Positions 1,755 to 30,629 of a stretch of DNA of 64,000 nucleotides are shown in pieces. A model generated the notes under the pieces. It saw nothing but the letters and a program-made list of their open reading frames with translations. It was not told where the DNA came from and did no database searches. The position numbers and the translations under genes were made by a program. Location: NCBI GenBank assembly GCA_031418215.1, contig JANOXC010000119.1:4245-68244 (forward strand), in the 5' to 3' direction. Source of the DNA: Bacteroidota bacterium (GTDB lineage: Bacteria; Bacteroidota; Bacteroidia; AKYH767-A; OLB10). The stretch's first letter is position 1. Each line of letters opens with the position of its first letter.

Positions 1755-3008
1755 ATGCTGAAATTGAACAATATCATTTTAATAACATTAATTAATCTTT
1801 TGACTACGAATACCCAAGCTCAACAACGATTGATTACGGGCAACATAAGTGATGCAGCTACAAAAGAGCCATTGCCCTATGCAACAATATCTTTAAAAAA
1901 GCAATTGATTGGCACCATCAGTAATGAATCAGGAAATTTTGATTTTTATATTCCTTCCGATTTGGTAAATGATACCTTGACAATCAGTTCGCTTGGATAT
2001 AAGCCTGTAATGTTTGTCCTGAGTGCGATTACCCAACCATTAATGGTTCGCTTGCAATCAAGTATGGTTGATGTAAAGGAAATTCAAATCCGGCCCTTGC
2101 CTCCAACCTACTACATCAAACAAGCCATTTTAAGCATTAAGGCAAATTATCCTAATTCTCCCTTTCAAACAGAAGCTTATTACCGCGAAAAAGTAACAGA
2201 AAACAATGCATTAATCGATTTTAATGAGGCAATTTTTCGAACTTATTACCAAAACTATACAGATACAGCAACAAAAAACCAACACCAATTACTAATTTTT
2301 CAACAAGCAGATGAAAAAAAGAAAATTGCATTTATGAGTGAACAAAATAAAAAGAAAAAAGAAAAGCAAAAAAAGAAAGGTGGTGATAAAGAAGAAAAGG
2401 AAAGTATATCAATTAGCGGATTAGGCGGCGGTCCTGAAACAATTTTAAGTCTTGATATAGTTCGTGATAAAGAACCATTCCTGGACAGTACTACTTTCAA
2501 ATATTACAATTATTCATTCGCCCCGTCATCCTCTTATCAGAATAAAGAACTGATGGTAATCGATTTTAAATCAAGGCGAGTGCTTGATCATGTAAAAATG
2601 GAAGGGAAAATTTATTTAGATGTTGAATCGAATGCCATTGTGAACATCGAATACAAGGGTCGTTTTATTATTCCTGTGTTAATTAAGCCTCTTCTCTTTT
2701 TATATGGTTTAGATATAGACAATCCCATTATCAGCAAGAAACTAGAATACCAAGGGGTTAATAATAAATGGTACCCAAAAAATATTCAAGTTAATATAAG
2801 TGCTGATCTAACCAAGAAACACTGGTTTAAAGAAAATGAACATTCAACTTTTGAAGCGGAAGGTATTTTCAATGTAAATAAATTGAAAACTGAAAAGGCG
2901 ATTGCAATAGATCCCTCGAAGAGATTCGATTCCAAGAAACCATTAAAGGATCAGGTTCACAATGACGAAGGTAATACCTGGTCAGGTATCAATATAATTA
3001 AAAAATAA
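1755..3008 (+). CDS. Secreted/outer-membrane protein with N-terminal carboxypeptidase-regulatory-like domain
   Basis: Signal peptide, then ITGNISDAATKEPLPYATI...GTISNESGNF...LTISSLGY (CarbopepD_reg_2-like); beta-rich C-terminal half. Confidence 0.8.
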   Translation: MLKLNNIILITLINLLTTNTQAQQRLITGNISDAATKEPLPYATISLKKQLIGTISNESGNFDFYIPSDLVNDTLTISSLGYKPVMFVLSAITQPLMVRLQSSMVDVKEIQIRPLPPTYYIKQAILSIKANYPNSPFQTEAYYREKVTENNALIDFNEAIFRTYYQNYTDTATKNQHQLLIFQQADEKKKIAFMSEQNKKKKEKQKKKGGDKEEKESISISGLGGGPETILSLDIVRDKEPFLDSTTFKYYNYSFAPSSSYQNKELMVIDFKSRRVLDHVKMEGKIYLDVESNAIVNIEYKGRFIIPVLIKPLLFLYGLDIDNPIISKKLEYQGVNNKWYPKNIQVNISADLTKKHWFKENEHSTFEAEGIFNVNKLKTEKAIAIDPSKRFDSKKPLKDQVHNDEGNTWSGINIIKK

Positions 3009-3030
3009 CAAGGCTTTTTTATAAAATTAA

Positions 3031-3056
3031 TAGCCCGGGAATTATTTCCCGGGCTA
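3031..3056. terminator. Bidirectional intrinsic terminator-like hairpin between convergent genes
   Basis: Perfect 11-bp stem TAGCCCGGGAA-ttat-TTCCCGGGCTA between the stops at 3008 (+) and 3090 (-). Confidence 0.8.
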
Positions 3057-3089
3057 CTAATGAAACAAGATTTGATTTATTCAAAATTT

Positions 3090-6000
3090 CTACGGCCTTG
3101 TAAAGTCATAATTTAAAACCTGGTTGTTATAAATAATTGTTTCTTTACTCCATGTTTCAATTGAATTACGATGTCTTAATACAAGGTAATAACGGTGACC
3201 GGATATTAAGCCGGCAAAAGTAAAAGTTCCATATCCTTTGGTATTTATTACACTTGTATCAGAAGATACAATCTGATAGGTTGCAGAATCTGCCATAGAT
3301 AAAATAACGGAATCACAAATTGCAGGAAAATTAAGTGGGTCAAGTACTGCCATCATTGAATCCATTCCGGGAATATAAAATCCCTCTATAAAGGCCCTTA
3401 GATTCAATGTTACATTACAAGTGTTGTTATGATACACTCCGGTAATGGAATCACAGCCATCAATTGTACAGGCATTGTTATCATCAACAAGTATCGGAAT
3501 ATGACTTGGTCCGGTTACTGGGTTACAAGCATCCGCTGTACAAGCATTGGCATCATTAACTGGAATAACTGTATGTAAAGGTCCGGAAACAGAATCACAA
3601 GCGTCCGCAGTACAAACATTAATGTCATCAAATTGTATTAACAAGTGCGTAGGTCCGGCTATTGCATCACATCCATCTATTGTACAAATGTTTGCATCAT
3701 TTATTATTGGAAGATCGATATGTGTTGTCCCGGTTAATGAATCACATCCATCAGTTGTGCAAATATTATTATCATCTACTACCGGCAATGCAATATGTGT
3801 AGGGCCGGTTATTGCATTACAACCATCAGTTGTACAAACATTATGGTCGTTTTCGAAAGGCATTAATATATGTGTAGGCCCTAACAATGGATTACAACCA
3901 TCAGTAGTACATACATTATTGTCGCTAAAATTTACTGGCAAATAGGAATTGGTAATGGAATCAAAGTTTGCCGAAGTACATGCATCAAGTGCCAGTAAAT
4001 TTCCGGTATTGTTATAATAAATGGTATAACTTGCAGGTTGTATAAGTTGCAAATTACCTGGAAGAACTAAATAATTTCCGGGAGGGATGGTATCGGACAA
4101 TACCGGAAGATTTAAACTATCTATAACGGAATAGGTTGGAAGTCCAGCTAAAACCAAACTGTCAACATCATAATAATGATACCCCTTAATGTGATGTGTG
4201 AATACGGGTGTTTGTCCAAAAACAAGTACTGTGTCATTGGAAGATACATTAAGCTCAGCCTTAGTTATTGTTAAAGTTCCAAGATCATAAGAAACATCAT
4301 AGTTATCGGAAAGGTATGCACCCGGAACAATTGCCCAGGTACCTGCCGTAAAGCCGGTGATCATGTTAACGGACCGGAAATCTTCCAATGTATCATAAGA
4401 AGGCGCATTTACGTCGTCAGCATCAATTACAACAACTACATTTTCATTACTGCTATCTGACACCGTGGTTGAATTAAGCAGATTTTTTGCATTAATTAAA
4501 TTCTTGGCATTAATCAGGTTTTTGGCATTTACATAGGCAGATCCATTAATAAGATTTTTTGCATTTACCGCTGCTTTGGCATTGATATTAATAAGATTCC
4601 GTGCATTGATAAGATTTCTTGCATTAATCAACCTGGCGCTGTCTGGTCTTACCTGGTAATTAAAAATACTCTCCGGATCAACATCAATTAATCTGGTTGT
4701 ATCATATACAATTGTATTTGTATTGATCAGATTTTTGGCATTAATAAGGTTCCTGGCATTGATAAGGTTCCTGGCACTTACTAAAAAACTCAAATGTTGA
4801 ATATCAGCATTGATCAGATTACGAGAGTTCACCAGGTTTTTGGAATCAACAAGTACCAATGCATCAGCAATCTGACTACTATGCTCTAGCATCAATCCTG
4901 CACGAATCGCTAGCCTGTCAGTTGTGTCTATCGCAATTGAATCATAAGCATAAACAAATTTAAAATCTGTTAATTTATCTCCATAAACCAAGGTAGTGTC
5001 TTTCGGTTTGATGTTAAGTGGCATTTTTTCAATGCTAAGAAGTCCATTGTCAAACTCGTATGCATACTTATCCAGCAAGATGGATGATAATGAATCAGTA
5101 GGATCCAATGGATCAATAAAAGGCTCAATGAAATAATTACCCACATTACTTAAGGTGACTGCCGAAGTGAGGTACTTTACACTATCCAGTTTTAGTTCTG
5201 CCAATGTAATATTCAACGAATCTATCGGTTGACCGTCAATTTTTACTGAAATTGAAAAAGCAGGAATTTTTTCTCCATATTTTTTCGTTTTGTTGTCGGC
5301 TGTAATGACTATATGCTTCTTGAAAAAATAAATGGTATCAGAATTACCACCATCCAGCGCAAGTGTAGTTACTGCCGGGTTATGTATATATAATGGCGGA
5401 TTCCCTGTAAACGCTGGTATCTGCGCAGTAATCACATTTGAATTTACATAAGTAGAACTAATTAATATTCCATTAAACCATACCTGTGAGTTAGGAATGA
5501 AATAAGCCCCATTAATGGTAACCACAAAGGGTGCAGAACCAGGTGTTATAGAATCAGGCTCAACAAGGCTATCGGCAATTGGTGATCCGGAAACGAGTGA
5601 AGCAATTGCAGAATCGGCCTGCAATAGTCCGTAACCTGTTTCAAAATCAAAACCACCGGCTGCCATATCGCGACTGGTATTTTGAAGAATTGATTTTATT
5701 TCATCAGGCGTCATTCCCAAATTAAAAAACTTTTTCTTTGCCTCAATTAATAATGCTGCAACAGCGGCTGCATGAGGGACTGCAGCGGAAGTACCAAAGA
5801 AATTCGGAAATTTATCATTATCAATATTCTTTCCACCAAGGTTCACTGTAGTATTTACACCATTCGGTGCGATAAAATCTGGTTTGTTTCTTAATAAATT
5901 ATTTACTGTTGTTCCACCTGCAGAAGAAAAATCTTCTACCAAAGCCGGACTCACACCAAATGCAGGTGTTTTTGTGTACCGAGCGGCTCCAACAGTCATT

Positions 6001-9000
6001 GCTCCGATAGCATTTGCCTGACCAACAATTGTTGAATTGTTACTGTTGTATTCAGTAATGGTAAGATCTCCGCGGAAAACAATATATTTAAATCGCATAC
6101 TACCAGTACCGGCTGCACGCACAATCATTATGTTGGCTTCACTGTTTCCTTTTACAACAAAAGGTAATATTTCTACTGGGTCAGCTCCAATATTTGTTCT
6201 GTTGAATCCAAAGAGGCGATTACCAAAATCATCAGCTAAATAGATGTCAAGATCGGTGCTTGCACCTGGATATTGACCCATTGAAAAGAAAGAATCTTCC
6301 CATTGTAATACGATACAATAAGTACCCGACAACAGTTTAACATGTTGAAGAATATCAGTTCCGGTGCTTGCAAAATTGTGTGCCTGACCCACATATCCTG
6401 CGGGTGGAGTTGCGGGTTTAAAAACCGCATCATAGGATTTATCACCAAAATTTCCTGCAGATGTAAAATAGGCAACACCATGTGCTTTGGCGGAATCCAC
6501 AGCTTGCGCTATGATACCATCCTGGAAGAAAGGCTCAGAAGGAAATGTAATATCATCAATTATTATATTACAGGAATCCGCCTCCAGTTCCCTTATACCT
6601 TCAGCCATATTACTGGCTGTTAAAAATCCTGTACGAAAAGCCAATTTAGCTTTTGGTGCAACATCGCGTATAATCTGCATCATGGCCCTGCCCTCATCTG
6701 ATTTTCTTCCGAAAGGATAATCCTGAAGCACATTAATAGATGTTGCAGGCGGTAAATCACCGTTATTAATATCAACTTGTGCAGGGTTGCCGGCTTTCTT
6801 ATTATAACTGTCAGATAAAATTCCAATCTTAATTCCTGAGCCATCAACTTTGAATACCTTTCTTGCTATATCAGCTCTAATGGCAATATCACCTTTTGAA
6901 TAGGCCACACCTATCCCCTTAGGTTTTGCCGCGCCTGAAAATGGAGATAATAATACATGTACTTCATTAATCAATGTAGTAAGCGAATCCAGTAAATTTA
7001 ACTTTGCCTGTGGAAACTTTCCCGTAATGATTAAGGAGTCGTCTCCATTATCAACAATATCTACCATACCATAATCAACACTCTGTAACAAGGTTAATAC
7101 TGAATCGTACATGCCTTCAAAAGGAATTACATTAATAAAAACACTATCAACGCCAAGTACAATCAAACTTGTATTAACCGCATTAGCCGCTGTTGTAGTG
7201 GTATCAGCAATTGAATCAGGGTTATTTTGAATTTGCTGTAATTCACCTATAATGGCGGATGACTTTCCACTGTCGGAAGAAGTAAAATATGGTATAATGC
7301 AATTTACTAACGCCATGGAAATGGATGTTGATGGACCGGTACAACCATTGTTTGTTAGTGTTACACCATAAGTTCCCGGAGTAGTAACAAGAAATGAATC
7401 GGCAACTAAATTGCCGGGTGTCCATACGTAACTGTAATTATTTATTAATCCCGGAGTTGAATCAGTTACAAATAATGTAGAGGTCCCTCCTTCAGCGCAA
7501 AGCGGACTGTTAGGTATGATATGCGCCGTAGGATAGGGAGTTACTCTAACCTCAACAAGCTTAATAGTTGAACATCCTGTATTTGCAAGTCCTTTTATAT
7601 AATAAGTTCCTGAAGCGTTAATAGCTGCCGGAGCTGCTATTGTTGTATAAGCAATACTATCTTTCCAATAGCTGTATGCTAAACCACTTTGCGAACCGGA
7701 TACAATTGTTGAATTTGTTAAATTGACAGTTAATGGTGCACAAACAGTAGCCGGATTGGTGATTTGTATTGATGGTGCAGCGACAACAAATAAATTAACT
7801 GAATCCGTTTTTACACATCCGTTATTCCCTGTTACAGAAACTGAATAATAACCGGAAGTATTGGCATTAGTGTTAGTGATTTTCGGATTTTGTTGGGATG
7901 AAGTAAATCCATTGGGTCCACTCCAAACATATGAAATACCTCCGCCGGCAGTTAAATAAATAGTCGCGCCTGAGCATATCGGACTAATGAAGCTTGCCAA
8001 TGTTATTGGGGCAGGAATATGAGTAATGACCACAGGTTTTATATCATAACAACCAGCAGTCGTGATGCCTTTAATATAATAAGTACCTGCAACAGTAACT
8101 GCATAAGGAATTATAACAGCTGAAGTAGCCTGGATGTTATTCCAATAACTATAAGCAAGTCCATTCGTCGAACCTGAGGTAATTAAAGTGTCAAATAAAC
8201 TCACTTTAACATTTGAGCAAACAGTTGCCGGATTGGTGATTTGAACAACAGGAGTTGGATTAACAGTTATATATATAGAATCGGATTTACTGCAACCATT
8301 GGCATTTGTAATGGTAACTTTATAATATCCTGAATCAGCAACTGCGGGATTAGGTTTAATTGGACTTTGAAGGTTTGAATTAAATCCATTCGGGCCATTC
8401 CAAGAATAAGCTGTTCCTCCTGATGCGGCAGAAAATTTAATAGAATCTCCCGAACATATAGGGCTATTTGTTGTTGGTGAAACGGATGGCAATACCAGAA
8501 TAGTAAAATTCCACGTAGTACAACCCGCTGCTAAGCTAAATCCATTTCGCGGAACTACTTTCCAGGAATAACTGCCAGGAGTAAGTGGAGTTAAAGTTGT
8601 ATAACTTGTATTTGCTTGATTGGTTGAAACCAATGTTACACTGCCTGCAGATGGATATAAATAAACATCGTAACCGGTAGCCGTGGCAACAGCAGGCCAA
8701 CTCAAAGTACTATTTATCGCAATACAAAGTGATGAGCCATTAGATGGAGCTGTTGGTGCTGCAACACAAGTTGGTATTGTTGAAACCACACAAATACTAA
8801 ATGATGCAGGCGCACCAGCTGTTGTGCCTCCAGTTCCTGCATGATAAACTCTTACGTAATAAATATGACCAACAATGGTAGTAAAACCTGATGACTCAGA
8901 TGATCCGGCAGTATTATTTAGATTACGACATAGAATGGAAGTTTTTGAATTGCAATTTCCTGGACCAATACCTCCATAATATACCTGAAATGCTGGATCA

Positions 9001-12000
9001 TAAGCACCACTTCCTGTTACCGTTACAGTATTATAACCAGTACCGGCAAACCAATACCATACATCATCATCAGCAATTCCGCATAATGTAGTATCTGCAG
9101 AAGCTGTTGCATTTGTAGTAGAAACATTTACGATTTGATTAAGCCCAGTATTACAAGTTAAAGAGTTTGCACTGGCAAGCTCCGTTGCATTTGCACACTC
9201 ATCATTACTTGCATCTGGGGACAATACCACTAATGCAAATTCACCTGTAATTCCCCAGTTGGGTGATTCAATATCAACAGTAGGTTGACTTGTATAACCA
9301 TAACCTGCTGTACTAATTGATATCGATGAAACAGTACCTGAACCTTGATTTACTGTTCCAATAGCGCCTATGCCTCCGCCTCCGGAAATAGTAACTCGCC
9401 CACTTGTGCTACCTCCTGATATACTAAATAATGCTGTGTTATATCCACTACCATTATTATTCATAACAATATTGGTAATTCCTCCACCTGGAGAAAAAGA
9501 AGCTGTGGCAGTAGCCTTTACTCCTCCTCTTTCATGATATATCCTAACGTAATATATACTGTCGGGTATTGTCATAATTGCAGAATTAAGAAATACTCCT
9601 GCGCCCGGGTAAGTGGTATTGTTGGCCATACCTGATTCGACTATACCAACTTTACAGGAGATTGAATTGAAGGAATTATTAAGCACTTGTACCCTCGGGA
9701 TATATCCTCCTGATGCGTACACAACAACATTGGTATTGATGTTTTTTGCATTAAATTTAAACCACACATCATCATCATTATTACCGGCACAAACAGCAAC
9801 ATTATTGCTAGCTGTTGCAAACCTCGATGAATAAATATTTCCACAAAGATTATCAGGTAATACAGAAACGGGAGCGATAAAAGTTGCACCGGAATAATCA
9901 TCATTATTCGGAGGAGTTGTGGGTGGAACTGTACCACCTGTATATCCGGTTCCCGGAGTAAATTTTATTGTTGAATTGCAGGATGGCGCAATACTTAGTC
10001 CGGTTGTACCTCTTGCTAATACGTTAGTATTTGTATAGGAAAACACATCAGAATTCTCATATTGCTGTGCTAACACCTGTCCTTGCAATGCAGGATCATT
10101 CACAAAAATTCCCGTAAATCCAACTCCATAACTAAGGCGGGCATCTTGTGTCCCATTAAATGCTTGAAGTGGACCATAATTATAGGAAATACTATTATCG
10201 CTTTCATCAAGTATTACCTGAATGCTTATCAGTGAATTGGATACACCATACATCGTAAAATCTTTCCACTCGGCAATTATTTTCCTTGCGCCGGTTGTTC
10301 CGGTTATTTTCCATTTTGTTTTAACATCATAAATAGCAGTACCGCCTGAGATTGTTGGATCACTTATCAGGTCGGTATAAAAAGGAGCAAGCATAAATGG
10401 AAATGAACTTCCATTCAAAATTGCGGCAGTTGGATTAACAGAAGGTGCAAATCTGTTCGAATAAGTACTGCCGGTTACTGTAAATGCAGGGGTTGCTGTT
10501 GAAACCAATCGAATGATACCATTGGTTAGTAGTTGAAACCCTGTAATCACTTGACCGCAATAAGTAAATGTTGAGCCGGGAATAGTTACAACATTTGAAA
10601 GAGCCTCATCCCCTGATGAACTGATCCAAGTAAAAGTATTGCCTGAATTAATAATTGAATTATAAGTAGTATTCGTTGCGCGGGTTATATTGTATTGCAA
10701 AGGCACAGGAGTGTAAGTACTCAACCATGCATAAAAATCATCACCTGTTGGTACTATGGGGCCAGTTATTGTATCTGCTGTTTGCTTGCTTCCTGTTGCA
10801 CTAAGTGGGGTATTGGCTGTGCCAACGGCAGTACTCCTTGTGGTCCACGGTCCATTTACAGCAGGTGCCTGACCAACAAACAATCCACCCTGATCAGAAA
10901 CTAAACTATCATTCACAGTCCAAAATAATGTAACTAAAGGTTTGGTACCATAAACCATACCCACCGGGATATTTAATCGATTAGTTCTTTTACCAATCGG
11001 TCCACCTGTTCCTGTTGGCCTTCCTAATCGACTGGCAGAAATTTGTGTAATTGTTGAGCCCGTGCTAAGCGAACCTGTACCTGTTGCAACTTGAATTGAT
11101 CCATCAAACGGAAATGTGCGGGTTACACTTCCACCCGGAGCTGTTAATGAAATAACACCATTTGAAACATTTGCACTTACACTTCCTGTTGTTCCGGAAT
11201 AACTATAAAGGGAGCATAAAAGTGTATCGCCATTCAAATCTAAAATACCACTTGAAAATGATAAAGGCGATGAACCAAATAACTCCAGTTTGCCTAATAA
11301 TTTAACGCCGCCAATTGGGCTATTTCCGGAAAGCAATAGAGCGTTAATCTTATTGTTCGAAGGAACTTCAGCGCCGGCTGTCGCAACTCCATTTTGTGAA
11401 TTATTTGCACTTAGTGGAGAAATATTATTGTAAGCAATATTATAAAGTGCAATGCGTGCAGTTGGTGCAGTTGAAGCTACAGTTGTTGCTGTGCCTCCTC
11501 CCAAGCCTACTATTGGAGCAGTTGTAAATCCATATCCGGAATTGGTAATTGCGAAGTTATTGATCTGACGGTTTGTGTTAATAACTACAATTGCTGTCGG
11601 CCAACATCCCCCGGGCCATGCAATCGTACCATTTCCACTAATTGAAATTGTTGGTGGGCTGGAATAAGTAGCAGCAGTTCCTGTATTCAAATAAACAGAA
11701 ACCAATTTGCCCTGACTAACAGTTATGGTAAAATTTGCTGAAGTTAAAGCAGTTCCTGAAACTGGTGTGCCTGTGATCGTAATTGTAGGGGCAACTGTAT
11801 ATCCCGAGCCGCTATTGGTAACTAGGTTTAAAGCCGTAGGGCCAGCGAAACCAACTGTAGGTGCAACGGTGTAATTTACACCTGCACCCGTAACGGAAGT
11901 AGTTGAAATAAACACTTGCCCCACACCGCTACCTTTGGTAATTCCCGAAGCTGTTGCAGGTGCGCCCTGATCATTATTGATTGTTAAACCACCACTGATT

Positions 12001-15000
12001 ATAGCGGTGGCATTTTTTTGCAACAAACTATTTGAAGGGCCATCCATTCGTTGAATCATTACAGGCGTTGCAACCGCTGGTGAAACTACCGTAGCACCTG
12101 TAACTGTGCTGAAAGAAAGTGAGGGAACAACAGAATAACCGCTGCCAGCACTATCCAATTGTAAACTCCTGACTCTTGATGTTGATGCATCGTAATTAAC
12201 TGACACTTTTGCAACAGTACCTACATAAAGCAAGTTAGATACAATACCTGAAGTATGAACCGGAGGCGACGAAGCCGAGCCCGTTTGATTAGATATTGAT
12301 GCTACAACGTAAAGATTATTACGATAGAAATATTGTGTTCCAGCAATTAAACCGCTAGCAGTAATATTAAAAGGATTTCCCAAGGTACCCAACTCACCAA
12401 TATATAATAATGTAGGACCGCTGGTATTAAATGTTGTCGAGGCTGTTGATGTTGGAGGCGTTGTATTAAAATTTGCTGCTGCCGTACATAAATAGACACG
12501 TGTGCCATACCAATAATAGGTACCTACTGTAGTTGTTTGCCCGGCAATATTTCCGGCTGAAGTATCTTTAACTACTGCTGTTCCAAAAACAACAGGCGCA
12601 GCACTATACTGTTGACCCATGTTGGTAACAACAACATTATTGACGCGTGAATTATATCCCTGGCCATAAACCTGTGCAGTATTATCAATTGTAAGTTTAC
12701 CACCTGTATTCAATGTTGCTCCCCACACATTTAATCCGCTCGTTACTAAATTTTCACTTGTATTAATTGTTAAAGAACCAGTACTTGCTACTTGTATCGT
12801 GCGAATGATTCCTTTTGTTCCATCACCTTTGAACGAACCGCTACCAGAAAGAAACTGTACATTATTTCCGCCAGGCAAAGTATTCCCCAGGAAACTTAAA
12901 ATTGTACCGTTTGCTGCGCAGTTTGCAAAACCATTATTTGTGAAGTTGCCCCCGATCTTAATGGTTGCTCCAAACGGGCTTGTGCTGGCAGAATATTGCA
13001 GGAATGAGCCATTGGAATTGATCAATATATTGCCGGTAACCGTCATCTGAGATGTACTACTCCACTGAAGAATGGCTGACCCGCCTCCTCCAACAACACC
13101 AACAGTTAAGCTTTTAATTCCGACCAACACATCTACAGTTACAGTTGCGCCATTTGAAATTACAACTGAGTCATTTACAGTTGGCACTACTCCATTGATC
13201 CAGGTTGATGGGTTACTCCATAATCCGCCGATCGCTGTGGAGCTAACACTGTTGTTGCTAGTCGTTACAAACGAAAAATATTCCCCATTGGCAAGATTAA
13301 AAGGTCCCGGAGAAAATGGTTGTGTTGTCGTTCTATTTCCAACTTGCATTCCATTAGTAACTGAAAACACTGTTGCGGTATCACCGGCACTGACATCTGA
13401 TAAACTTCTCATTGTCCAGGAGCCGGCAGATGAAATTGTTGACTGACCAATAAAAATAGAAGCAAGACGTTGAGATGGACTAAAATTATCATTACCATTC
13501 CATCTTAACTGCAACGTTGGCGTTTCAGCTGTTCCTGAAGTTGTTCCGGCACCAACTCCCAAAGTTCCATTCGCCTGAACACGGTATGATCTGCTACCAA
13601 TTGGATTACCCGATGCAGCGTTGATTGACCCGGTGGCAGCACCTAATTGTGTTACCGTATAACTTGTAGCTGTCGCACCACTCTGGTTTGGTAATGATGC
13701 GTTGGTAGCATTTAGCGTAACAGTAGCATCAAATGGAAAAGCCTTGCTTTGTGTTCCACCCAGTGATTTAAGGGTGATGGGTCCATTCGTCACATATCCA
13801 AATAAAAGATACAACGGAGTGGAAGGTGTGCTTGTTGTTAAACCGGTATAAGAAGGATGTGAAAAAGTTAAAGTGTTTCCACCCAAATTCAATACACTCG
13901 GTGAAACAACAGTTGAAGATGGCAATGATAGGGCAGTAACGGAAGCAGTTAACTCAAGTGGAGCAGTTAGTGTGACATTTGCAAAGTTGGCACCAATACT
14001 ACCATTTACTGTAGTTGTACTTCCAACTACTAATGAATTCATTCTATTACTTACCGGAATTTCAACACCTGTGGTAATGCTTGGATTTGCAACAGTTGCT
14101 GCTGAAGTATTTTGAGAATATGTTAAATTATATAAAGCAATTTTAGCCGTGGGTGTTGTCGTTGCGGCTACAACAGCTATTCCTGCATTCGTTGCTGTTC
14201 CTAATCCAACTGTTGGTGCTGAAGTATAACCAAATCCAGAGTTAGTAATATTAAAATTATTTAGCTGTCCATTGAAGCCTATCACTGCTGTTGCAGTTGG
14301 CAAACATCCGACAGGAAATGCAGCCATAGCCTGGACAGGGCCTGATCCGGTAGGAGCAGAAATAGTGATTGCAGGTAAAGACGAAAACAATGCTGTTCCA
14401 GCACTCGAAATAATTAGCGAAACTACTTTTCCTCCTGCAACTACTGCAGTAAAAGTTGGTAAGGTTGGACTAGCACTGTTATTTATAATTCTACCAGCCG
14501 TATCTGCCGATATTGAAACTGTCGGTGCTGCAATATATCCTGAACCTCCATTAGTTATAAAATTTAACGCCCCAACCGGTAACGTAAAACCAACTTGTGG
14601 TGCAACTGTGTAACCAACACCTGCGCCGGTAGATGAACTAGCTGGAATAACAATACTTCCAACACCACTAAAAGCCGTTGCACCAGCAGTACTATTGATA
14701 GTTAATCCACCTGTTATTGTAGCTGCCGTTCCCTTTGTTGTTGTAAAACTCGATGTCCCCTCAATACGTTGGATAAGAACTGTGGAACCTGAAGCAGAAG
14801 TTGTTGTTGTACCACCATTTTCATTAATTGTTAAACTAGGACTCACTGAATAACCGGATCCTGCATTGGTAAGTGTGACGCTTCTTACATTCAATGTTGC
14901 AGTTGGATCATAGTTAATGGATGCTTTTGCAGGAGATCCTACGTACAATAAATTTCCAACTATTCCTGATGGATGCGTAGGTGGTACAGATCCTGTTTGC

Positions 15001-18000
15001 GTTGCAAGTGAAACATAAAGATTATCACCATAAAAATATTGTGAGCCTAATACTAAACCATTCGTTGATTGATTAAATGGATTTCCCAGTGTACCCAAAG
15101 TACCAATCCATAATAAAGATGGGCCACTTGTATTAAATGTTTGAAAATAATTCGATGGGTTATTTACAGGATTTACTGTTGGCAAACTTGTAAATGTTCC
15201 GGTATCAGTACAGAGGTAAACATTATTTCCGGAAAAGTATCTACTCCCTAAATTTGCAGCTGTTGTTCCTACAGCAATAGGCAGTACAGATGCACCAAAA
15301 ATTACCGGAGGAACGCTGTAATTTCCCATAGTGTTTAATACAACATTGGCCAACCGGTTATTCAGACTTTGTCCATACACCTGTGCAGTATTATCAATTT
15401 TCAGTTTGCCGTTGGTTGAAATATCTCCAACGTAATCATTGAATGTTCCGGCAAGAATAAGGTTTTGTATTGTATTAATATTTAAACTTGAGGCATTAGA
15501 CATGGTCATACCACGAATAATTCCATTAAGGCTATCACCAACAAAATTTCCTGATCCACTGATGATCTGTGGTGAAGCCCCATTAAAAGAAATATTTGCA
15601 AGCGCTAAATTTGCCAATCCATTATTTACAAAGTTTCCTGCAAGGTTTAATGTAACAGTACTTAAACCGGAAGTATAAGGGAAAAATGATCCTCCTTGAT
15701 TGACGGTGAGGTTGCCTCCTACTGTTAAAGCGTTTGATGTACTATTCCATTGAAGCACAGCGCCACTATCAATCGATAAATTGTTCGCTGCTGCTACCGT
15801 ATCAATAGTAACAACTGAAAGACTTAAAATATTTACATCATCGCTTACCGAAGGTACCATTCCATTATTCCAGGTATTGGGATTGCTCCAAAGACCTCCT
15901 TTAATTGTTGAACTAATGCTCGTTGGAATATGGGTTGTAAAAATGTTAACCGTGCACAATGTGGCCGCCCCAAATTGATTTCTGGGAATTACAGTCCAAT
16001 AATAAGTAGCAGCGGAAATAAGCGAGCTTGAAATTGTAAATGATGTTGTAGAAATATTACTAGCAATTTTTACCGTTGCACTTAATGAATTAACTAATGA
16101 TTGACTAGTGCTTAGATATACGTCATAGCCTGTTATATTATCACCGATTACCCCGCTCCATGATAAGACAGGTTTAATAGAAACATTTGTGGTATTGGTG
16201 AGTGGGGAAAAAGTAGTGATGCACCCCGGAACTCTATTTGTATTGGTAGTGGCTGTATCGTTAAGCGGATTCAAAGTCTGATAAATAGGACCAATGCATG
16301 TTCCCGGATTATTGCTCATTGAATAAACATAGAAACGGTAAGTTGTATTTTGAGTTAACCCTGTGGCAACAAATGGAGATGTTGATGCATAATTTCCAAC
16401 AACGACAACAGTACCAAGACCAAGCGTATTTCCGGTCGAATAAGTGGTTTTATCGGAAGGCGGTGTAACTGCAGAACCAACGGGATAAACAACAACTAAA
16501 TATCCATCAGGTAAACTGGGAGCCTGCTGAAAACTACCTGCTATTCGGGTATAATAATTTGCAACAGGAGCAATAGTTAATGAAGTAGGTTGATTGGCAG
16601 GAACAGCACAATCAATTTGCAATGGTGGTTTTGAATAATATATATCCTCAAATGCTCCAATGTCGGGTGTAGTAGCATTTCTCGCGTTTCCGGAATAATC
16701 TCCATTGATAGCAATTGGAGAAGTTATAGGAGCAGCAGTTCCTTCTACATAAGTTGGATTAGCAGCTGAAGTATCAACTTTTAGGAAATTGATATTACTA
16801 TATGAAGTTGACCTAAATACCACATCCTCCGTTAATGAAGATTGGTCACGAGATATCATAAAAGACTGATAGGAAGTGGTACCGTTGAAATTTTGCTTTG
16901 CATTTAAAACCGGATTTGCAGTGCCTTCACAATAAATCAGCTTATTCGGTCCAGGAATACCTGTATAAAAAATATTCTTATTAGAATTGATTGAATAACT
17001 GGAGGTTAATGTGCCGCTTCTTCGGTATGCTGCACTTACACCGCCTGTACCGCCCGATCCGCCAGGACTAATCAAGTTGATGAAAATATTATTGCGTAGG
17101 GTAAGATTTGGCGAAGTTGATGCATTAATTGCACTAGATCCATAAAGCGAACCGCTACCCGACGCACCACTCAATCGTACAGTATTATATGTCACATTAA
17201 CCGTTGTGCCACCCAATACATCAAGTCCAATCACTGAATGCGCACCTGTCGCAGAAACAATAGAATTAATATTACTAACAAGATTATTATAAATATGTAG
17301 CGTGGTACCGCCTGTTATTTCAATGCCTTTTGCAACGGCTGATGATGAACCGCCAATAATGCCACAAATTGCATTTTTATAAATGCTTACAGTCGTCCCA
17401 CCCGAAACTCCAATTCCTCTTACTATTCCTCCTCCCTTAATGGAATCTGTACTGATGGTGTTACCATATATATTAACCGTAGTTCCTCCAGTATTTAGAA
17501 TACCGGTTACATTACCTGTTCCACTTCCCACAACTTCTAAAACAGAATTATTATAAACAGAACTTGTTGTGCCAGAATTACTGATACCTGAAACTGTACC
17601 ACTTCCAATTCCACTGCTTTTCATTCGTGAAACAACATTTGAACTCAGGCTACTAGATGCACCGGAGTTCGAAATGCCGGTAATTGTCACTGAATTAGTA
17701 TTACTGTTTGTAGAGGTAACATCTGTTATAAGATTGGAATCGCAGCTAATGGAAGCAAAGTTGCTTATACCGATTAAAGTTCCAGTTGAACTACTGTTAG
17801 TAGTCAACAACTTAATATTGTTATTTCTTACTATTCCTGTTACAGTGCTTGATATCAACATACCGGTAACTGAACCACTTGTAACAGTTCCTGAAAGCGT
17901 AAGTGAAGTTATTGTATCATTTTGAATATTAACGGCACCAACTACCGTTCCGATTCCAATAATTGATGCATTACCCGAAGCAGATAAATTTGAAACTTTG

Positions 18001-21000
18001 TTTCTTTGAAAAGACTTATTTCCCGCAACCCCAAATTCATAAATACCCCTTATAGTTCCTGCACCTCCTACAGATAAATTCTTTACAATATTGTCGTTTA
18101 TCGTAACATTCACAGCAGAGGTGAAACTGAAAAATCCATTAATAATTCCAATGGAAGATGCATTGCTATAACTATTGTTTTCGACAAGGTTTCCGCTTGC
18201 TGTCCAATTTTGAGGACTGATTGTTTTAATACCGTGCATTGAACCGGATGTTCCTGTGCAAATATTATTTCCTATATAATTATTATTAGATGTTAATGTT
18301 GAACTACCACCTGTTGTACTCCCTGTTTCCATCAAAGTAACCGTACCAGTTCCTCCTATGGTATCATTCATTACAACGTTGTTATTCATAATTGTTGCAA
18401 CCGTTGAAGTTCCCGTTGTTGAAATTCCTGTGAAGGAACCTGTAGTAATGGAATCCATTTTGATTAACATTACCGTATCACTACTCATTGTCATGTTTCT
18501 TGGTGAAGTTCCGGTAGAAGCAATTCCAACAAAGGAACCTGTTTTAGCACCCCTCGTAATATTAGAAACTCGGTTATTACTACATATAACATCAATGTTG
18601 GTAGAACTACTGTTCAAGATTCCATTGAATGCAGCTGTGGACGCCTGTGGTTGATTTACGTTGCCAACAAAATTGTTATTCATTGTAAGCGTTGAGCCGG
18701 TAAGCAAAGCAGTTCCTGAACCCGGTTCCACTGTTATCCCTGTAATGACACCTCCTAATGAAGAATTATTGCAATTAGTAATTGTATTGCTATTTATATT
18801 GATGATTTCTTTCCAGTTAGGAATACTGTTTGTTGGCCAATTTACACAAATCATTCTGTTAGAACCAGCACTTGATCCAGAGAAAGTATTTCCTGAAAAA
18901 ACATTGCCAATTATATTTAAAGAATCATGGGCAAACTGATCAAGAATTCCATTCATAGCTATACTTGAAGTTGTAATGTTAGAAGTATTGCTGTTGTTGA
19001 GTACCTGATTATTACTGATTGTCATTTTCGCGGCTGACATTGAATCTGTAATCAGCTTATTAATTAGAATTGACATAAAAAAAGCATTAGCTGTAGGAGG
19101 TATATAACAATTTTGAATGATGTTACTGTCAATTAGTATTGTATTGCTTGGCGCTCCAACTCTTGTCGTACGATTGCCGGCAAGAGAATAAATACCAGTG
19201 ACGCCATAACCTGATGGTCCACCTGATGGTCCACAATTTGTCGTTAATGAAATTGTGTTTTTCGAAATTGTCGCATTGGCATTTTGAGATGACCACAATC
19301 TCATTCCTTCCACCCAGGCGCTGTGTATCACACCGGTAAGATTGGTAATGGCATTTCCTACAATTGAAAAATTATTGTTATTGCCTATTTCAATTCCTAT
19401 GGCAGCATTAGCTGTATCACCCCCTCTTCCGAAATCGGAAATCGTATTTCCTTCTCCGGCTCTTCCAATTTCATTATCCTGATCATAAAAAGTAAAGGGT
19501 GCTACATCAGCATAACCATACATATTAATTCCCTGGAAACAATTGCTGATGGTGTTACTATAAAACTTATTGTACGAATTGGTGCCTGACAAATTTGTAA
19601 TTGTAGGATAAATATAATTTGCATCGTATGCCCTGGTCATAATACCAAAGGTGGAAGCTAAATTTGATTTATCAAGCGTGATGGAACAGTTCCTGATGGT
19701 ATTGTGTTGTGCTCCATCAGTTCCGGAACATAATACAAATTCAAAGCCTACTTCAGCTTTTGTAGCGTCAGTTGTATTGGCTGCATTCTCACGCAAATCA
19801 AGACCGTTGAAAGTGATATAGTCTGAACCAACCAATCTAAATATCCGATCAAAACCGCCAGGACCAGCACCGGCATATATAATCGGATTGGCACCGGCGC
19901 CTGATTTTTGAAAAGTAACTGTTTGTGCAGCATTTGATTTCAATGAATCATTCAAGCTGCACATATTAATAACCAATCCGCCTGAAGGTGCTGTTTCAAT
20001 ATGACCCGTCTCCAAATTAAAAATCACATTGCCATTTACACCGCGTGAATTTAAATCACTGATTGAAGCGGCCAACGATGTGTAATTGGTGCAGGAGGCA
20101 GATAATGCACTGTTTATTGTATAGGTTCCTGATAAAGGAATGCTTCCATTTACACTCATCACTATCATATTGGAAATTGCAACAGAATCACCTGAATTAC
20201 AAACAGGAACAGAGGTCATTTCACAGGATATGGTATCAAAATTTAAAATAGAAGACGTGGTATAAATGGTATCATTAGTTCCCACATTTACACCATTTTT
20301 TTTCCACTGAAAAGAGGGATTGGCTCCAGCATTGTTCCTTAATGCGACAAATGTTACAGATCCTCCGATGCAAAGATTATTCTGAACAACACTGATAATT
20401 AATGATGATGATTGGGTAATATTTATATTCGTACCATTGTTATTTCCAATTACTGCGGGATTACTTCCCACCACCCTGATTCTATATGCATTGCCGCTTG
20501 AAGCATTAAACGGAATAGTACACGCAATATTATTGCTTGTTAAACTGGATATACTTCCGATTGCTATTGGGTTTGAAAAACTGCCCATTGAATCACTCAG
20601 TTGGGCAGTGAATATATTTCCTGAAATAAATGTCCCGGTAATTGTGTAGAAAACATTCAACGCATTACCTGAACAAAAAGAAGTATCAACAAAACTAGTT
20701 GTAATGGTTGATGGTATCGGAATAGAAATGTTGCACCCAAAAGTACTGGTACTGGTTGTTGTTCCATCACCCAATTGGCCGAATGAATTAAGTCCTGTCA
20801 TACAAATGTTATCACGATGTGCTTTAATAACACCAGTATGATAGGAACCAGCAGAAACAGCAACAACATCTGTTTGAGAAGATATGAGCGTAGGAATGAT
20901 TTTATTAATTATTGTTCCATCACCCAATTCCCCGTCTGCATTGTTACCCCAGGACCAAAGGCTGCCACTTGTTTGCATGGCAAACGAATTACCATTACCA

Positions 21001-28035: not shown

Positions 28036-29343
28036 ATGCTTGAAACCGCACTATCAATCGGTTATATTAGTTTCTTTTTTTGGATCATCGGCAAATCTTC
28101 TTTTTTCCAAACCAATGAAGTTTCAAAGAAGTCTTTTAAATGGCTATTTCTTCTGAAACTAGCAGCAGGTTTTGCGCTCTTTTTGGTTTACACACGCTTT
28201 TATCCCGATAGAAAATATGCTGATATTTTCAGATACTATGACGATAGCGGAATAATATTTAAGTCAGCATTTTCAAAGCCTTTTGATTTCTTCCGTATGC
28301 TGACAGGCTATCATCAAAACGACAAGGACCTGATGGTATATTACAATGCCATGCACAACTGGTTTAACAGTGAAATGGTTTTTAATGATGCAAGGACAAT
28401 GATTCGGCTAAATGTATTATTCCGTTTTTTTAGTGTTGGCACCTATTATCCACACGGTATTTTCTTTTGTTTTATGGCGTTTACTGGTCTAACAGGATTG
28501 TTTAAAGTTGCTGCAAAAGAAATTAAAGAAAGAAATATACTTTTGCTACTGGCAATATTTTGTATGCCCTCTGTATTATTCTGGACATCAGGTGTAATTA
28601 AAGAATCCTTTCTGGTATTTGCCATCGGACTGATGATATATTTCGTAAACAGCATTGTTGAAAAACAGGGTAATAACATCAAAAACATTATTGGTGCAGC
28701 AGTAAGCATGTTTTGTTTGTTGAATATTAAATCATATGTCTTTTTTGCGTTACTTCCCGGACTCGTGGCTTATTTTTGGGTTAAGAAATACAGCAATAAA
28801 GCGTTTTGGAAATTTTCATTCGTTCATCTTTTATATCTCATTACTTTATATAATCTCTCAACTTCCTTTACACATCATCCTGTCCCTCAATTGCTGGCAG
28901 ATAAGCAACAGGAGTTTAACAACCTGGCTCAAAAAGAACAGGCTAAAAGTTTAATTCATCTTCCGGAAATTAAACCTGAATTAGCAAGTGTATTGCACAA
29001 TGCACCAAATGCATTTATTGTAACTCTTTTAAGACCTCACTTATTGGAAGCACATAATAGTATGATGTTGCTTTCCGCAATAGAAAATCTTCTGATCTTT
29101 TTGTTGATTTTAATTAATCTGCTACTTCTTTTAAAAAGGAAGATTAATAATTTAAGTATTACTCCCATAATATTACTATCTATTTTTTTTGTCATCATTA
29201 CCTTCTGCCTGATTGGACTTGTAACACCTGTTTTAGGAGCAGTTGTACGGTATAAGGTTGCTGCATTACCCTTTTTAATGCTGCTGTTATTTTACCAGGA
29301 AAGATGGAAAAAACCATTGAAATTGTTTACTCCAAATAAATAA
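28036..29343 (+). CDS. Polytopic membrane protein, GT-C/Wzy-like (paralogue 1)
   Basis: About 10 hydrophobic segments; acidic loop after the early TM helices (YADIFRYYDD); PSVLFWTSGVIKE and TPVLGAVVRYK. Confidence 0.6.
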   Translation: MLETALSIGYISFFFWIIGKSSFFQTNEVSKKSFKWLFLLKLAAGFALFLVYTRFYPDRKYADIFRYYDDSGIIFKSAFSKPFDFFRMLTGYHQNDKDLMVYYNAMHNWFNSEMVFNDARTMIRLNVLFRFFSVGTYYPHGIFFCFMAFTGLTGLFKVAAKEIKERNILLLLAIFCMPSVLFWTSGVIKESFLVFAIGLMIYFVNSIVEKQGNNIKNIIGAAVSMFCLLNIKSYVFFALLPGLVAYFWVKKYSNKAFWKFSFVHLLYLITLYNLSTSFTHHPVPQLLADKQQEFNNLAQKEQAKSLIHLPEIKPELASVLHNAPNAFIVTLLRPHLLEAHNSMMLLSAIENLLIFLLILINLLLLLKRKINNLSITPIILLSIFFVIITFCLIGLVTPVLGAVVRYKVAALPFLMLLLFYQERWKKPLKLFTPNK

Positions 29344-29348
29344 AACAA

Positions 29349-30629
29349 ATGGAATGGATGCTTTTTATATTTTACTTTCTACTATTTCTCTACCTATTAA
29401 AGAAATGGAACTTTTTTAATAACACGTTACAATTTCCACTATTAGCTGCTATTTTTATTATTAAAATTGCTGCAGGAGCATTTATAGCTTTTATATATAG
29501 TCATTTTTATAAGGATGGCGATACTTATAGCTTAATGAAAGATGTAAACCTCATTTTTGGCACACTTTCAAATAACCCATCGATTTACTTCCAATTTATC
29601 ACAGGTCTGGAAATTGATAAGGATGCTTTTTCATATTATTATCAGCATTTTAAATCCATTAATGTAATTGATTTTAATAAGTCTTTCAAAGACCCTTTGA
29701 TTATGTTAAGATTCAATTCCTTTTTATGCATTTTCACATTTGGCTATTATTATGTGCAATTACTTTTCATGTGTTTATTTTCTATGATAGGACTGACAGC
29801 CTTGTATAAAACCGCTTTAAAAATTTCCGGTTGCAATGAATGGTTATTAATTACTGCTTGTTTCGGTATTCCATCAGTGTTGGCATGGGGATCATCAGTA
29901 TTAAAGGAACCTATGATACTTTTCTTATTGGGAACAATGATTTTTAGCTTTTACAATTGGCTGGGTGAAGGAAAAAAAACAAACGGTTTCCTTTTTATTG
30001 CAACAGGATTACTGCTCTTCGGAATGAAACCGTACATAGCAATTAGTTTGTTACCTGGTATGGTGGCATGGTGGATTTATTCGAAAAGAAAAAATCATCT
30101 CACATTAACTATTCTGGCAACTTACCTGTTGTTCTTTCTAGGAGCAATCATACTAAGTAATATTAGTATCAGATTAAACATCTTCCGCCTTCTTAATGAT
30201 CAGCAGATTATTTATATGAAGAATGCAGTATTTTATCCAGCCAATAGTTTGGTAGAACTTATTCCTTTCGCTCCAAGCCCTGTTAGTGTTGTAAGAAGAA
30301 TCCCCGATGGATTATTAATGTCATTAACAAGACCTTATTTTAGCGAATGCAAAAACAAACTGCAACAATTATCCGCTTTGGAAAACTGGATGATACTGGC
30401 ATTTATAGGTTTTCTACTGTTTAAGTTAGATATTAAGAAATTACACGCAAATCCATTAGCTCAACTTTCAATCATTTCAGGCCTTCTTATTTTAGTGATT
30501 GCTGCATACACAACACCTGTGTTGGGAACACTTGTCAGGATTAAAATGCCCGGTGTTTTACTATTACTATTTGGCTTGGCTGCAGGCAGTAAAATTTCTA
30601 AAATCAACTTCACAAAAGCAATAAAATGA
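29349..30629 (+). CDS. Polytopic membrane protein, GT-C/Wzy-like (paralogue 2)
   Basis: Collinear with paralogue 1: DGDTY, PSVLAWGSSVLKE, TPVLGTLVRIK. Confidence 0.6.
   Translation: MEWMLFIFYFLLFLYLLKKWNFFNNTLQFPLLAAIFIIKIAAGAFIAFIYSHFYKDGDTYSLMKDVNLIFGTLSNNPSIYFQFITGLEIDKDAFSYYYQHFKSINVIDFNKSFKDPLIMLRFNSFLCIFTFGYYYVQLLFMCLFSMIGLTALYKTALKISGCNEWLLITACFGIPSVLAWGSSVLKEPMILFLLGTMIFSFYNWLGEGKKTNGFLFIATGLLLFGMKPYIAISLLPGMVAWWIYSKRKNHLTLTILATYLLFFLGAIILSNISIRLNIFRLLNDQQIIYMKNAVFYPANSLVELIPFAPSPVSVVRRIPDGLLMSLTRPYFSECKNKLQQLSALENWMILAFIGFLLFKLDIKKLHANPLAQLSIISGLLILVIAAYTTPVLGTLVRIKMPGVLLLLFGLAAGSKISKINFTKAIK

Follow-up and report, generated by a model that had tools for sequence, protein, structure and literature searches.

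Phage-like GSGY-repeat cassettes of a giant Bacteroidota protein as parts of an old, conserved and probably extracellular module

Introduction

Work by Fraser et al. from 2006 reportedly found Ig-like, FN3 and BACON-type domains both on phage virions (e.g. T4 Hoc) and in bacterial surface proteins. The presence of such small β-rich domains on virions as well as on bacterial envelopes implies horizontal exchange and a weak binding of glycans. As an earlier note on the DNA considered here had pointed out, a GSGY..PTV repeat is typical of structural, tail and baseplate proteins of large T4-like phages such as cyanomyophages. Here, we describe two cassettes that carry this repeat (hereafter GSGY) together with a second small domain (HTSG) in a giant open reading frame (ORF) of a Bacteroidota bacterium. 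The ORF lies in a stretch of 64,000 nucleotides (nt) of GenBank assembly GCA_031418215.1 (contig JANOXC010000119.1, positions 4,245 to 68,244), which we refer to as the window.

The earlier note had interpreted the cassettes as virion modules domesticated by insertion into a bacterial β-helix protein. We instead consider, with a probability of about 0.6, that each cassette is the middle third of an ~890-amino acid (aa) extracellular module of a giant Bacteroidota surface protein, built from promiscuous blocks and having a binding role.

Results

The two cassettes are paralogous and form the central part of an ~890-aa tandem duplication (aa 2345-3235 and 3236-4100 of the giant protein, 44-48% identity). 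We divided the duplicated module into four profiles, namely N (~173 aa), A (~145 aa), GSGY (~270 aa) and C (~290 aa), and scanned one genome per species (GTDB) with peptide patterns taken from inside part A of the cassette. The module was found in 49 Bacteroidota species, with 35-53% identity over module residues ~1-886. Its carriers belong to Flavobacteriales, Chitinophagales, Crocinitomicaceae, Cryomorphaceae and Ferruginibacter, and are mostly freshwater metagenome-assembled genomes. The order N-A-GSGY-C was kept at near-constant size (~820-890 aa) in 46/46 loci not cut by a contig end, as it is in both modules of the window. A lineage-specific insertion of the cassettes is contradicted by this same four-part module in all 46 complete loci from the 49 species. 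The comparison with homologues lacking the insert, which that note had proposed, pointed the same way: part C occurred without the GSGY part in 0/97 homologous proteins. The N domain alone was present in ~22 other secreted bacterial proteins among the 97 scanned.

Two tandem modules also occur in two further loci (L002 and L003). Module 1 of the window is 51-53% identical to their first copy and 40-42% identical to their second; being nearer to the first copies, it indicates that the duplication is older than the divergence of those species. In another homologue (P0030), the layout is N-GSGY-C without the HTSG pair, and only 47 aa separate N from the first full GSGY unit, which shows the HTSG pair to be a sub-insert that can be separated from the GSGY array around it. 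One module homologue is adjoined by rpoB/rpoC, and module homologues bear Ig_7 (PF19081) or Por_Secre_tail (PF18962) domains. Three full-module homologues (P0017, P0019 and P0023) are named "beta strand repeat-containing protein" by NCBI. Judging from these sequence comparisons, we conclude that the cassette is a fixed, long-inherited part of a bacterial surface module across Bacteroidota, and not a recent capture of a phage fibre.

Within the giant protein, the cassettes are bounded by IDNTAQVYGQ (aa 2518-2527 and 3421-3430) on one side and by KIALYNL (aa 2936-2942) or RIALYNI (aa 3832-3838) on the other. The earlier coordinates, placed between IDNTAQVYGQ and [KR]IALYN[LI], agree with ours within ~50 nt, and the four peptides quoted with them are all present in the giant ORF. 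The "TATAVIG..GQL.NF.I" strand described there corresponds, in our alignment, to the N-terminal hairpin of a canonical GSGY unit. The motif repeats themselves proved real, and only their number had to be revised, from 4-5 copies per cassette to ~6 GSGY units of ~38-45 aa when the degenerate ones are included. The HTSG pair is nested after the first (degenerate) unit.

The core motif of the repeat, [ND]-x-G-x-G-[YF]-x-x-x-P-x-[VI]-x-[IFL] following a β-hairpin (A.A.v..G.v..i.i), is found in the cassettes. A regular head-to-tail array of ~38 aa with G-rich linkers (GGGG.GA) is not: the units are irregularly spaced (25 to ~105 aa), their linkers are not poly-Gly, and unit 4 has no G-x-G-Y turn. 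In the alignment with modules of other proteins, three consecutive units per cassette keep the register of three canonical 38-aa repeats (A.A.A.v..G.v..i.itN.G.GYt.aPtVtfsGGGG.G); in the window, the second of the three is degenerate. Canonical-looking units are present in the giant protein at a third site only (aa 4475-4564), which lies outside both modules and was absent from the earlier note. On either side of this site are segments with D-D-D-V-W-[FY]-x-F motifs that may be pre-peptidase C-terminal (PPC) domains.

T, S, G and A abound in the region, and the low-complexity filter of BLAST masked a canonical repeat used as query, so we asked how far low complexity could account for the repeats. 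A strict motif, G.G[YF]..[AVS]P.[VIL].[IFL], has 7 matches in the giant protein, all within the two cassettes; in 2,000 shuffles of the sequence the mean was 0.0035 matches and the maximum 1. As an independent check, we built a hidden Markov model (HMM) on an unrelated gp14-type phage protein (P0009), using its nine repeats and no other sequence. The HMM gave significant copies at three places only (aa 2676-2914, 3587-3814 and 4479-4558) and covered all 7 strict motifs; at the third site the independent E-value was 7.7e-9, and 2.2e-12 in a second scan. An artefact of low complexity is effectively ruled out by the 7 motifs against 0.0035 expected, and it would also be at odds with a phage-derived HMM falling exactly on the copies, with an alignment in register, with the high confidence of the structure prediction described below and with a region kept in 49 species.

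The AlphaFold2 (AF2) model of all 891 module residues, based on an alignment of 29 sequences, reached a mean predicted local distance difference test (pLDDT) score of 80 and a predicted template modelling (pTM) score of 0.83, so that the four parts are predicted as one rigid body. In the model, each GSGY unit is a β-hairpin that leads through the G-x-G-Y turn into a short strand (P-x-V-x-I). At the start of module 2, the Pfam G8 domain (PF10162) passes its threshold (25.0 bits against a cut-off of 22.9, aa 3249-3332); module 1 has no direct Pfam G8 match and is G8-like through its 44-46% identity to module 2. Comparison of the C-terminal with the N-terminal β-helix domain by hhalign gave a probability of 11%, a low value that neither favours nor excludes one split β-helix.

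Part A consists of a degenerate GSGY unit followed by two HTSG copies of ~55 aa, which derive from an internal duplication (hhalign E 1.5e-11) and share the consensus W/Y..Y.sGnNvY.c......ap.HTSG. The HTSG profile matches residues 493-547 of PDB 7EEA_A (E 1.6e-7), which belong to the receptor-binding domain of the tailspike of cyanophage Pam1.

These features could also fit a tailspike-like depolymerase, in which the whole module would be a glycan-cleaving β-helix enzyme, comparable to G8-PbH1 proteins and phage tailspikes, and the cassette its substrate-binding appendage. The G8 match at the start of module 2 and a pattern of short, β-helix-like strands in the AF2 model are compatible with it. 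When the model was compared with BFVD, 15 entries matched at E ≤ 1e-3, with cyanophage structural proteins foremost; the top match is an "endosialidase" of Synechococcus virus S-PRM1 (895 columns, E 4.6e-7), and further matches are pectate-lyase-type phage proteins. The Pam1 tailspike (7EEA) is the top fold match in the PDB, where it is not significant (E 0.063, TM 0.07-0.09). On the other hand, the BFVD matches are probably driven by common repeats, TM-scores are very low (0.05-0.13), and the fold search of the PDB returned no match at E ≤ 1e-3. Furthermore, Pfam and NCBIfam show no catalytic family, and no conserved acidic catalytic residues were identified. We therefore regard an enzymatic module as unlikely; a glycan-cleaving G8 β-helix appears to be a weaker alternative than a binding role.

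The kinship with phage proteins that the earlier note had proposed holds. In PHROGs, the cassettes match phrog_460, "head closure Hc2" (4.8e-9), as well as families of tail fibre, baseplate hub/lysozyme and virion structural proteins, while searches of both cassettes against Pfam (E ≤ 10) and NCBIfam (E ≤ 1) returned no family. The phrog_460 match spans profile positions 221-315 only, that is, the repeat extension, and the gp14 core domain (PF11649) has no match anywhere in the 6,619-aa protein. A tblastn search of 50,697 phage records gave 51 matches, all of them Synechococcus, Prochlorococcus or marine; in the one record that we inspected (ACG-2014d), the match lies within a virion protein of ~6,800 aa encoded directly after baseplate gp6. 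Searches with canonical repeat modules against isolate phages by tblastn gave 0 and 1 matches, the first probably owing to the low-complexity filter, and are no valid survey of the distribution.

With the whole-module profile, 54 proteins beyond the close family were found to share the GSGY part only, among them 14 neck proteins of the gp14 family (PF11649), a group of gp8 proteins, one protein of the sheath and one of the baseplate wedge. Two more GSGY groups sit on a 188-kb T4-like contig and on a 103-kb phage-like contig, and other GSGY proteins have an Hc3 connector or a phrog_511 core. In IMG/VR, we found four partial matches to the module, all within module residues 251-386 and at 36-39% identity, and no complete viral copy. 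The two of these that were examined (L055 and L058) are T4-like baseplate wedge proteins; in the one aligned, HTSG is nested between GSGY units and is collinear with the cassette (36% identity over ~135 aa). If the Bacteroidota module is left aside, the proteins of our sample that combine HTSG with GSGY are phage virion proteins and P0236, a single protein of unknown origin.

As a separate observation, the 188-kb T4-like contig (L052, Ga0673006_0000016) encodes a 1,055-aa GSGY-repeat protein at 10001-13168. Its gene stands directly after DUF4815 and before a pectate-lyase-type β-helix protein, upstream of gp25/gp6-like baseplate genes. In this phage, GSGY proteins may make up a virion component of their own.

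Taken together, the phage matches raise the possibility that an ancestor of these Bacteroidota captured a receptor-binding HTSG-GSGY block from a T4-like virion protein, which would now be used as an adhesin. Such a capture would account for isolate matches that are all from cyanomyophages, for PHROG families being matched where Pfam and NCBIfam are silent, for the collinear nesting of HTSG in baseplate wedge proteins and for the HTSG domain in the Pam1 tailspike. Since the pairing of HTSG with GSGY outside the module is found chiefly in phages in our sample, a phage origin of the block stays plausible. However, no close viral relative exists, the best matches reaching 36-39% over at most 136 residues, and the same data are explained by transfer from bacterium to phage. 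Moreover, the block is fixed in 49 species across Flavobacteriales and Chitinophagales, so that any capture must be ancient; the window shows no prophage context, and the repeat is abundant in non-viral bacterial proteins (see below). We therefore consider a domesticated phage module improbable. Of the earlier notion of a "domesticated insert", the phage kinship is borne out by the PHROG, tblastn, BFVD and 7EEA matches, and the insert status is not supported by the 46/46 complete loci, which were found with patterns from inside the cassette.

The extent of the repeat family was surveyed with a 3-unit profile (A5) against 1.84 billion representatives of clusters at 50% identity. We obtained 22,209 clusters at E ≤ 1e-3, 10,716 at ≤ 1e-10 and 1,996 at ≤ 1e-30, with as many as 30 matched stretches in one protein and scores as high as 1,178 bits; a 42-aa single-unit alignment was uninformative as query and returned 5 tiny proteins. 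The repeat has no Pfam-A, NCBIfam or PDB entry, and scans of proteins with perfect canonical repeats gave none either. Sequence searches of the PDB with cassette 1 and the single-unit profile produced only chance matches to the K+ channel filter "TVGYGYT", and literature string searches for the GSGY motif and for repeats of giant cyanophage proteins returned nothing relevant.

We grouped 202 GSGY proteins by their non-repeat parts. Nineteen of them are multicopper-oxidase-like (NCBIfam and Pfam), several with signal-peptide-like N-termini and one with a Bryobacteraceae chromosomal context; 17 are Bacteroidota lipoproteins, one of which has a bacterial gene context. Planctomycete-type and pilin-like N-termini are present alongside the phage groups. 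When the sequences outside the repeats were compared with PHROG and Pfam for clusters still unassigned, some proved to have Hc3, phrog_511, tail-fibre-like or NHL parts, and six clusters stayed without assignment. The window copies are 30-44% identical to phage and bacterial copies alike. The repeat is thus not virus-specific, and half of what the earlier note had named as speaking against its reading is observed: GSGY is widespread in non-viral bacterial secreted proteins with bacterial gene neighbourhoods. The window copies are no nearer to phage than to bacterial ones.

The features of the giant ORF are collected in Table 1. Its translation opens with a stretch that resembles a signal peptide (MKKTLLTLYFISLFFSVSAQ). 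In addition to the RCC1 repeats and the two modules, Pfam and NCBIfam scans indicate a long β-strand-repeat region, Ig/PKD-like domains, among them Ig_7 ("CHU_C associated"), and the G8, subtilase (S8), MBG and Dicty_CTDC-like Cys-repeat parts. The subtilase is followed by an NCBIfam "choice-of-anchor Z repeating domain" match (aa ~5792-5846), and the giant protein may thus combine adhesion and proteolysis. The Dicty_CTDC repeats are unusual for a bacterial protein. At least two other GSGY-rich proteins (P0157 and P0206) also begin with RCC1-like "GxLGxG" repeats, and a member of the same cluster (P0152) has NHL repeats; RCC1-type propellers and GSGY repeats may co-occur repeatedly.

Table 1. 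Positions of the cassettes, the modules and other parts of the giant ORF in the window
Feature	Position (nt)	Position (aa)	Strand	Remarks
Giant ORF	3090..22949		minus	6,619 aa, single ORF holding both cassettes
RCC1 repeats, 13 copies	20730-22832	~40-740	minus	RCC1-like domain E 4.7e-173, N-terminal part of giant ORF
Module 1	13245..15917	2345-3235	minus	G8-like β-helix domain, cassette 1, C-terminal β domain
Module 1, N-terminal G8-like β-helix domain	15399..15917	2345-2517	minus	ends just before IDNTAQVYGQ
Cassette 1	14124..15398	2518-2942	minus	IDNTAQVYGQ to KIALYNL
Cassette 1, degenerate GSGY unit 0	15294..15368	2528-2552	minus	VVLNTMGNYSVPPVIFG; weak hhalign match (E ~1e-3) to the GSGY profile
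Cassette 1, two tandem ~55-aa aromatic HTSG domains	14925..15293	2553-2675	minus	RYFSGNNVYLC... and QYFYGDNLY...PPTHPSG
Cassette 1, GSGY units 1-5	14181..14924	2676-2923	minus	unit 4 degenerate (GTALFSSLPAITI)
Module 1, C-terminal β-rich domain	13245..14123	2943-3235	minus	
Module 2	10650..13244	3236-4100	minus	second tandem copy, 44-46% identical to module 1
Module 2, N-terminal G8-like domain	12690..13244	3236-3420	minus	
Cassette 2	11436..12689	3421-3838	minus	IDNTAQVYGQ to RIALYNI
Cassette 2, degenerate unit 0	12582-12659	3431-3456	minus	
Cassette 2, two HTSG domains	12192..12581	3457-3586	minus	
Cassette 2, GSGY units 1-5	11469..12191	3587-3827	minus	
Module 2, C-terminal β-rich domain	10650..11435	3839-4100	minus	
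Third GSGY site, outside both modules	9258..9527	4475-4564	minus	two near-canonical units NNNGSGYNTALFSI + STAGYGYTSQPTVDI (also NNNGSGYNTALFSISGG, GGGGIGAIGTVNQGSGTVSSISISTAGYGYTSQPTVDI)
Subtilase domain (Peptidase_S8)	5628-6152	5600-5774	minus	E 4.7e-18
Heptad-like short tandem repeats "A[RK]NLIN"	4470-4844	~6036-6160	minus	SARNLINARNLINAKNLIN, NAKNLINAKNLINAKNLLN; MBG region near C-terminus
~Seven Cys-rich repeats "N.CT.DGC[ND]..TG..H"	3420-3962	~6330-6510	minus	Pfam Dicty_CTDC (Dictyostelium repeat), E 5.7e-22

The flanking genes are those of an ordinary Bacteroidota chromosome: a cyclase, SRAP, SDR, a transglycosylase, PurL, an amino-acid permease, an amidohydrolase, an acyl-CoA ligase, an M16 peptidase, a TonB receptor, two substrates of the type IX secretion system (T9SS) and a phosphoglucomutase. 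T9SS-type domains are present in two of these neighbours (CHU_C at 45482-46576 and Por_Secre_tail at 50611-52152). We found no phage structural, replication or integrase genes and no tRNA in the window, and the annotation of the neighbours confirms the absence of phage genes reported before. Between 91 and 100% of the sampled 31-mers of the region were found in seven independent freshwater/sediment metagenome assemblies (22% in the eighth listed run), and the region is therefore not an assembly artefact. Two adjacent plus-strand ORFs (28036-29343, 435 aa, and 29349-30629, 426 aa) match no Pfam family at E ≤ 1e-3.

This context also bears on the idea of a phage decoy or mimic, that is, a surface protein displaying phage-like receptor-binding domains that block receptors or mop up host-range determinants. 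The only point in its favour is the sharing of domains with virion proteins. The neighbouring genes show no defence-island context, an absence of support and not a disproof, as the padloc library was not searched. Moreover, the phage relatives infect cyanobacteria and not Bacteroidota, and the same repeat occurs in oxidases and lipoproteins, for which a role as decoy is not plausible. We consider this function very improbable.

Discussion

Based on these findings, we propose that HTSG and GSGY are promiscuous extracellular blocks that would have been exchanged between phages and bacteria, in either direction, in the distant past, and that their HTSG-in-GSGY combination would have become fixed long ago in a surface module of the Bacteroidota. 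In this model, the GSGY units would provide a rigid β scaffold that presents the HTSG surface beside the G8-capped β-helix, and the HTSG pair would offer an aromatic carbohydrate-binding surface, as presumed for the homologous sub-domain of the tailspike. The module would then behave like an adhesin and bind polysaccharides or cell surfaces, within a multi-domain surface protein that has a protease as well.

The most likely function of the module, as far as our analysis can tell, is the extracellular binding of glycans or surfaces. A binding role is suggested because HTSG is part of the receptor-binding domain of a tailspike and has a weak CBM12 likeness (CBM, carbohydrate-binding module), because the phage carriers are all exposed virion proteins, from T4-type neck gp14 and gp8/gp6-like baseplate wedge proteins to sheath, hub, tail-fibre and giant structural proteins and the Pam1 tailspike, and because all bacterial carriers with classifiable N-termini look secreted. 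A more specific version of this proposal would make HTSG-GSGY an exchanged receptor-binding cassette common to T4-like baseplates or necks and the Bacteroidota module. Phage and bacterium would recognize one class of cell-surface glycans, e.g. of cyanobacteria or algae in freshwater sediment or plankton, and the bacterium would attach to prey or partner cells by a receptor recognition of phage type; GSGY may in addition be an undescribed fold. We regard this version as rather doubtful.

Several points weigh against our interpretation of an old bacterial module that binds surfaces. The binding function is something that we infer, and the Foldseek matches to CBM12-bearing deacetylases are weak (E 0.8-2.4, probability 0.18-0.41); for the HTSG domain, no Pfam model was found at E ≤ 10, CBM_5_12 included. 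Since the patterns of the genome scan were taken from inside part A, homologues without the cassette were undetectable in it. Many of the top 150 GSGY proteins could be placed neither with phages nor with bacteria, and the combination of HTSG with GSGY was present in 0 of the bacterial secreted GSGY proteins sampled. Likewise, Pfam and NCBIfam scans of the giant protein, its last ~100 aa included (window 3093-3400), detected no T9SS C-terminal sorting domain.

A bacterial gene can contain a striking phage-like stretch without having captured a part of a phage. The cassettes would rather represent an old, stably inherited module of domains that are used outside the cell by phages and bacteria. 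As a kind, this is known, namely a giant adhesin-like protein that bears a promiscuous surface-repeat domain. A by-product of the analysis is possibly the more useful result, considering that a very large GSGY family, spread over phage necks, baseplates, sheaths and fibres as well as bacterial oxidases, lipoproteins and adhesin-like giants, is unannotated, and that the solved tailspike 7EEA offers an anchor for the HTSG domain of ~55 aa. Defining both families would improve the annotation of many entries called "virion structural protein" and "beta strand repeat-containing protein", and would help to learn what the exposed decorations of cyanophage virions bind.

How does the module compare with described systems? 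Among the giant "beta strand repeat-containing" proteins of Bacteroidota, the window protein is much larger and has two modules and no detected T9SS C-terminal domain. Like G8 β-helix proteins (PF10162; CEMIP/TMEM2/PKHD1-type, and bacterial), the module starts with a G8-like part and continues with β-helix-like strands, whereas the ~22 bacterial N-domain proteins are without the cassette and the C-terminal domain. In comparison with Ig-like, FN3 and BACON domains, the GSGY unit is shorter (~38 aa), has a G-x-G-Y turn and is without a solved structure or a Pfam/NCBIfam model.

The HTSG domain resembles CBM5/12 (chitin-binding type 3) in its size and in the aromatic pattern "Y.G..V.Y.....P". Weak fold matches recur, both to the paired CBM12 domains of chitin oligosaccharide deacetylases from Vibrio and to phage proteins annotated as ChiC_BD or CBM5/12. 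To our knowledge, the CBM5/12 signature does not include the conserved HTSG motif. With the tailspike of the cyanopodophage Pam1 (7EEA), the module has one ~55-aa sub-domain in common by sequence, and the global fold match is not significant.

The closest likeness is to the GSGY repeats of cyanomyophages, which are found in the C-terminal extension of gp14 (P0009/P0046/P0063), in PHROG families 460, 701, 4406, 19630, 5342 and 1922 and in ACG-2014d. They have the same ~38-aa unit, in register with that of the window at 30-44% identity, and HTSG is nested between units in the virion proteins as in the module. Unlike these proteins, the window protein is devoid of virion core domains such as those of gp14, gp8 or the sheath, and its GSGY units show more degeneration and an irregular spacing. 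These units are embedded in a bacterial module with a G8-like β-helix and a private C-terminal domain, encoded by a gene with a signal-peptide-like start and a chromosomal context.

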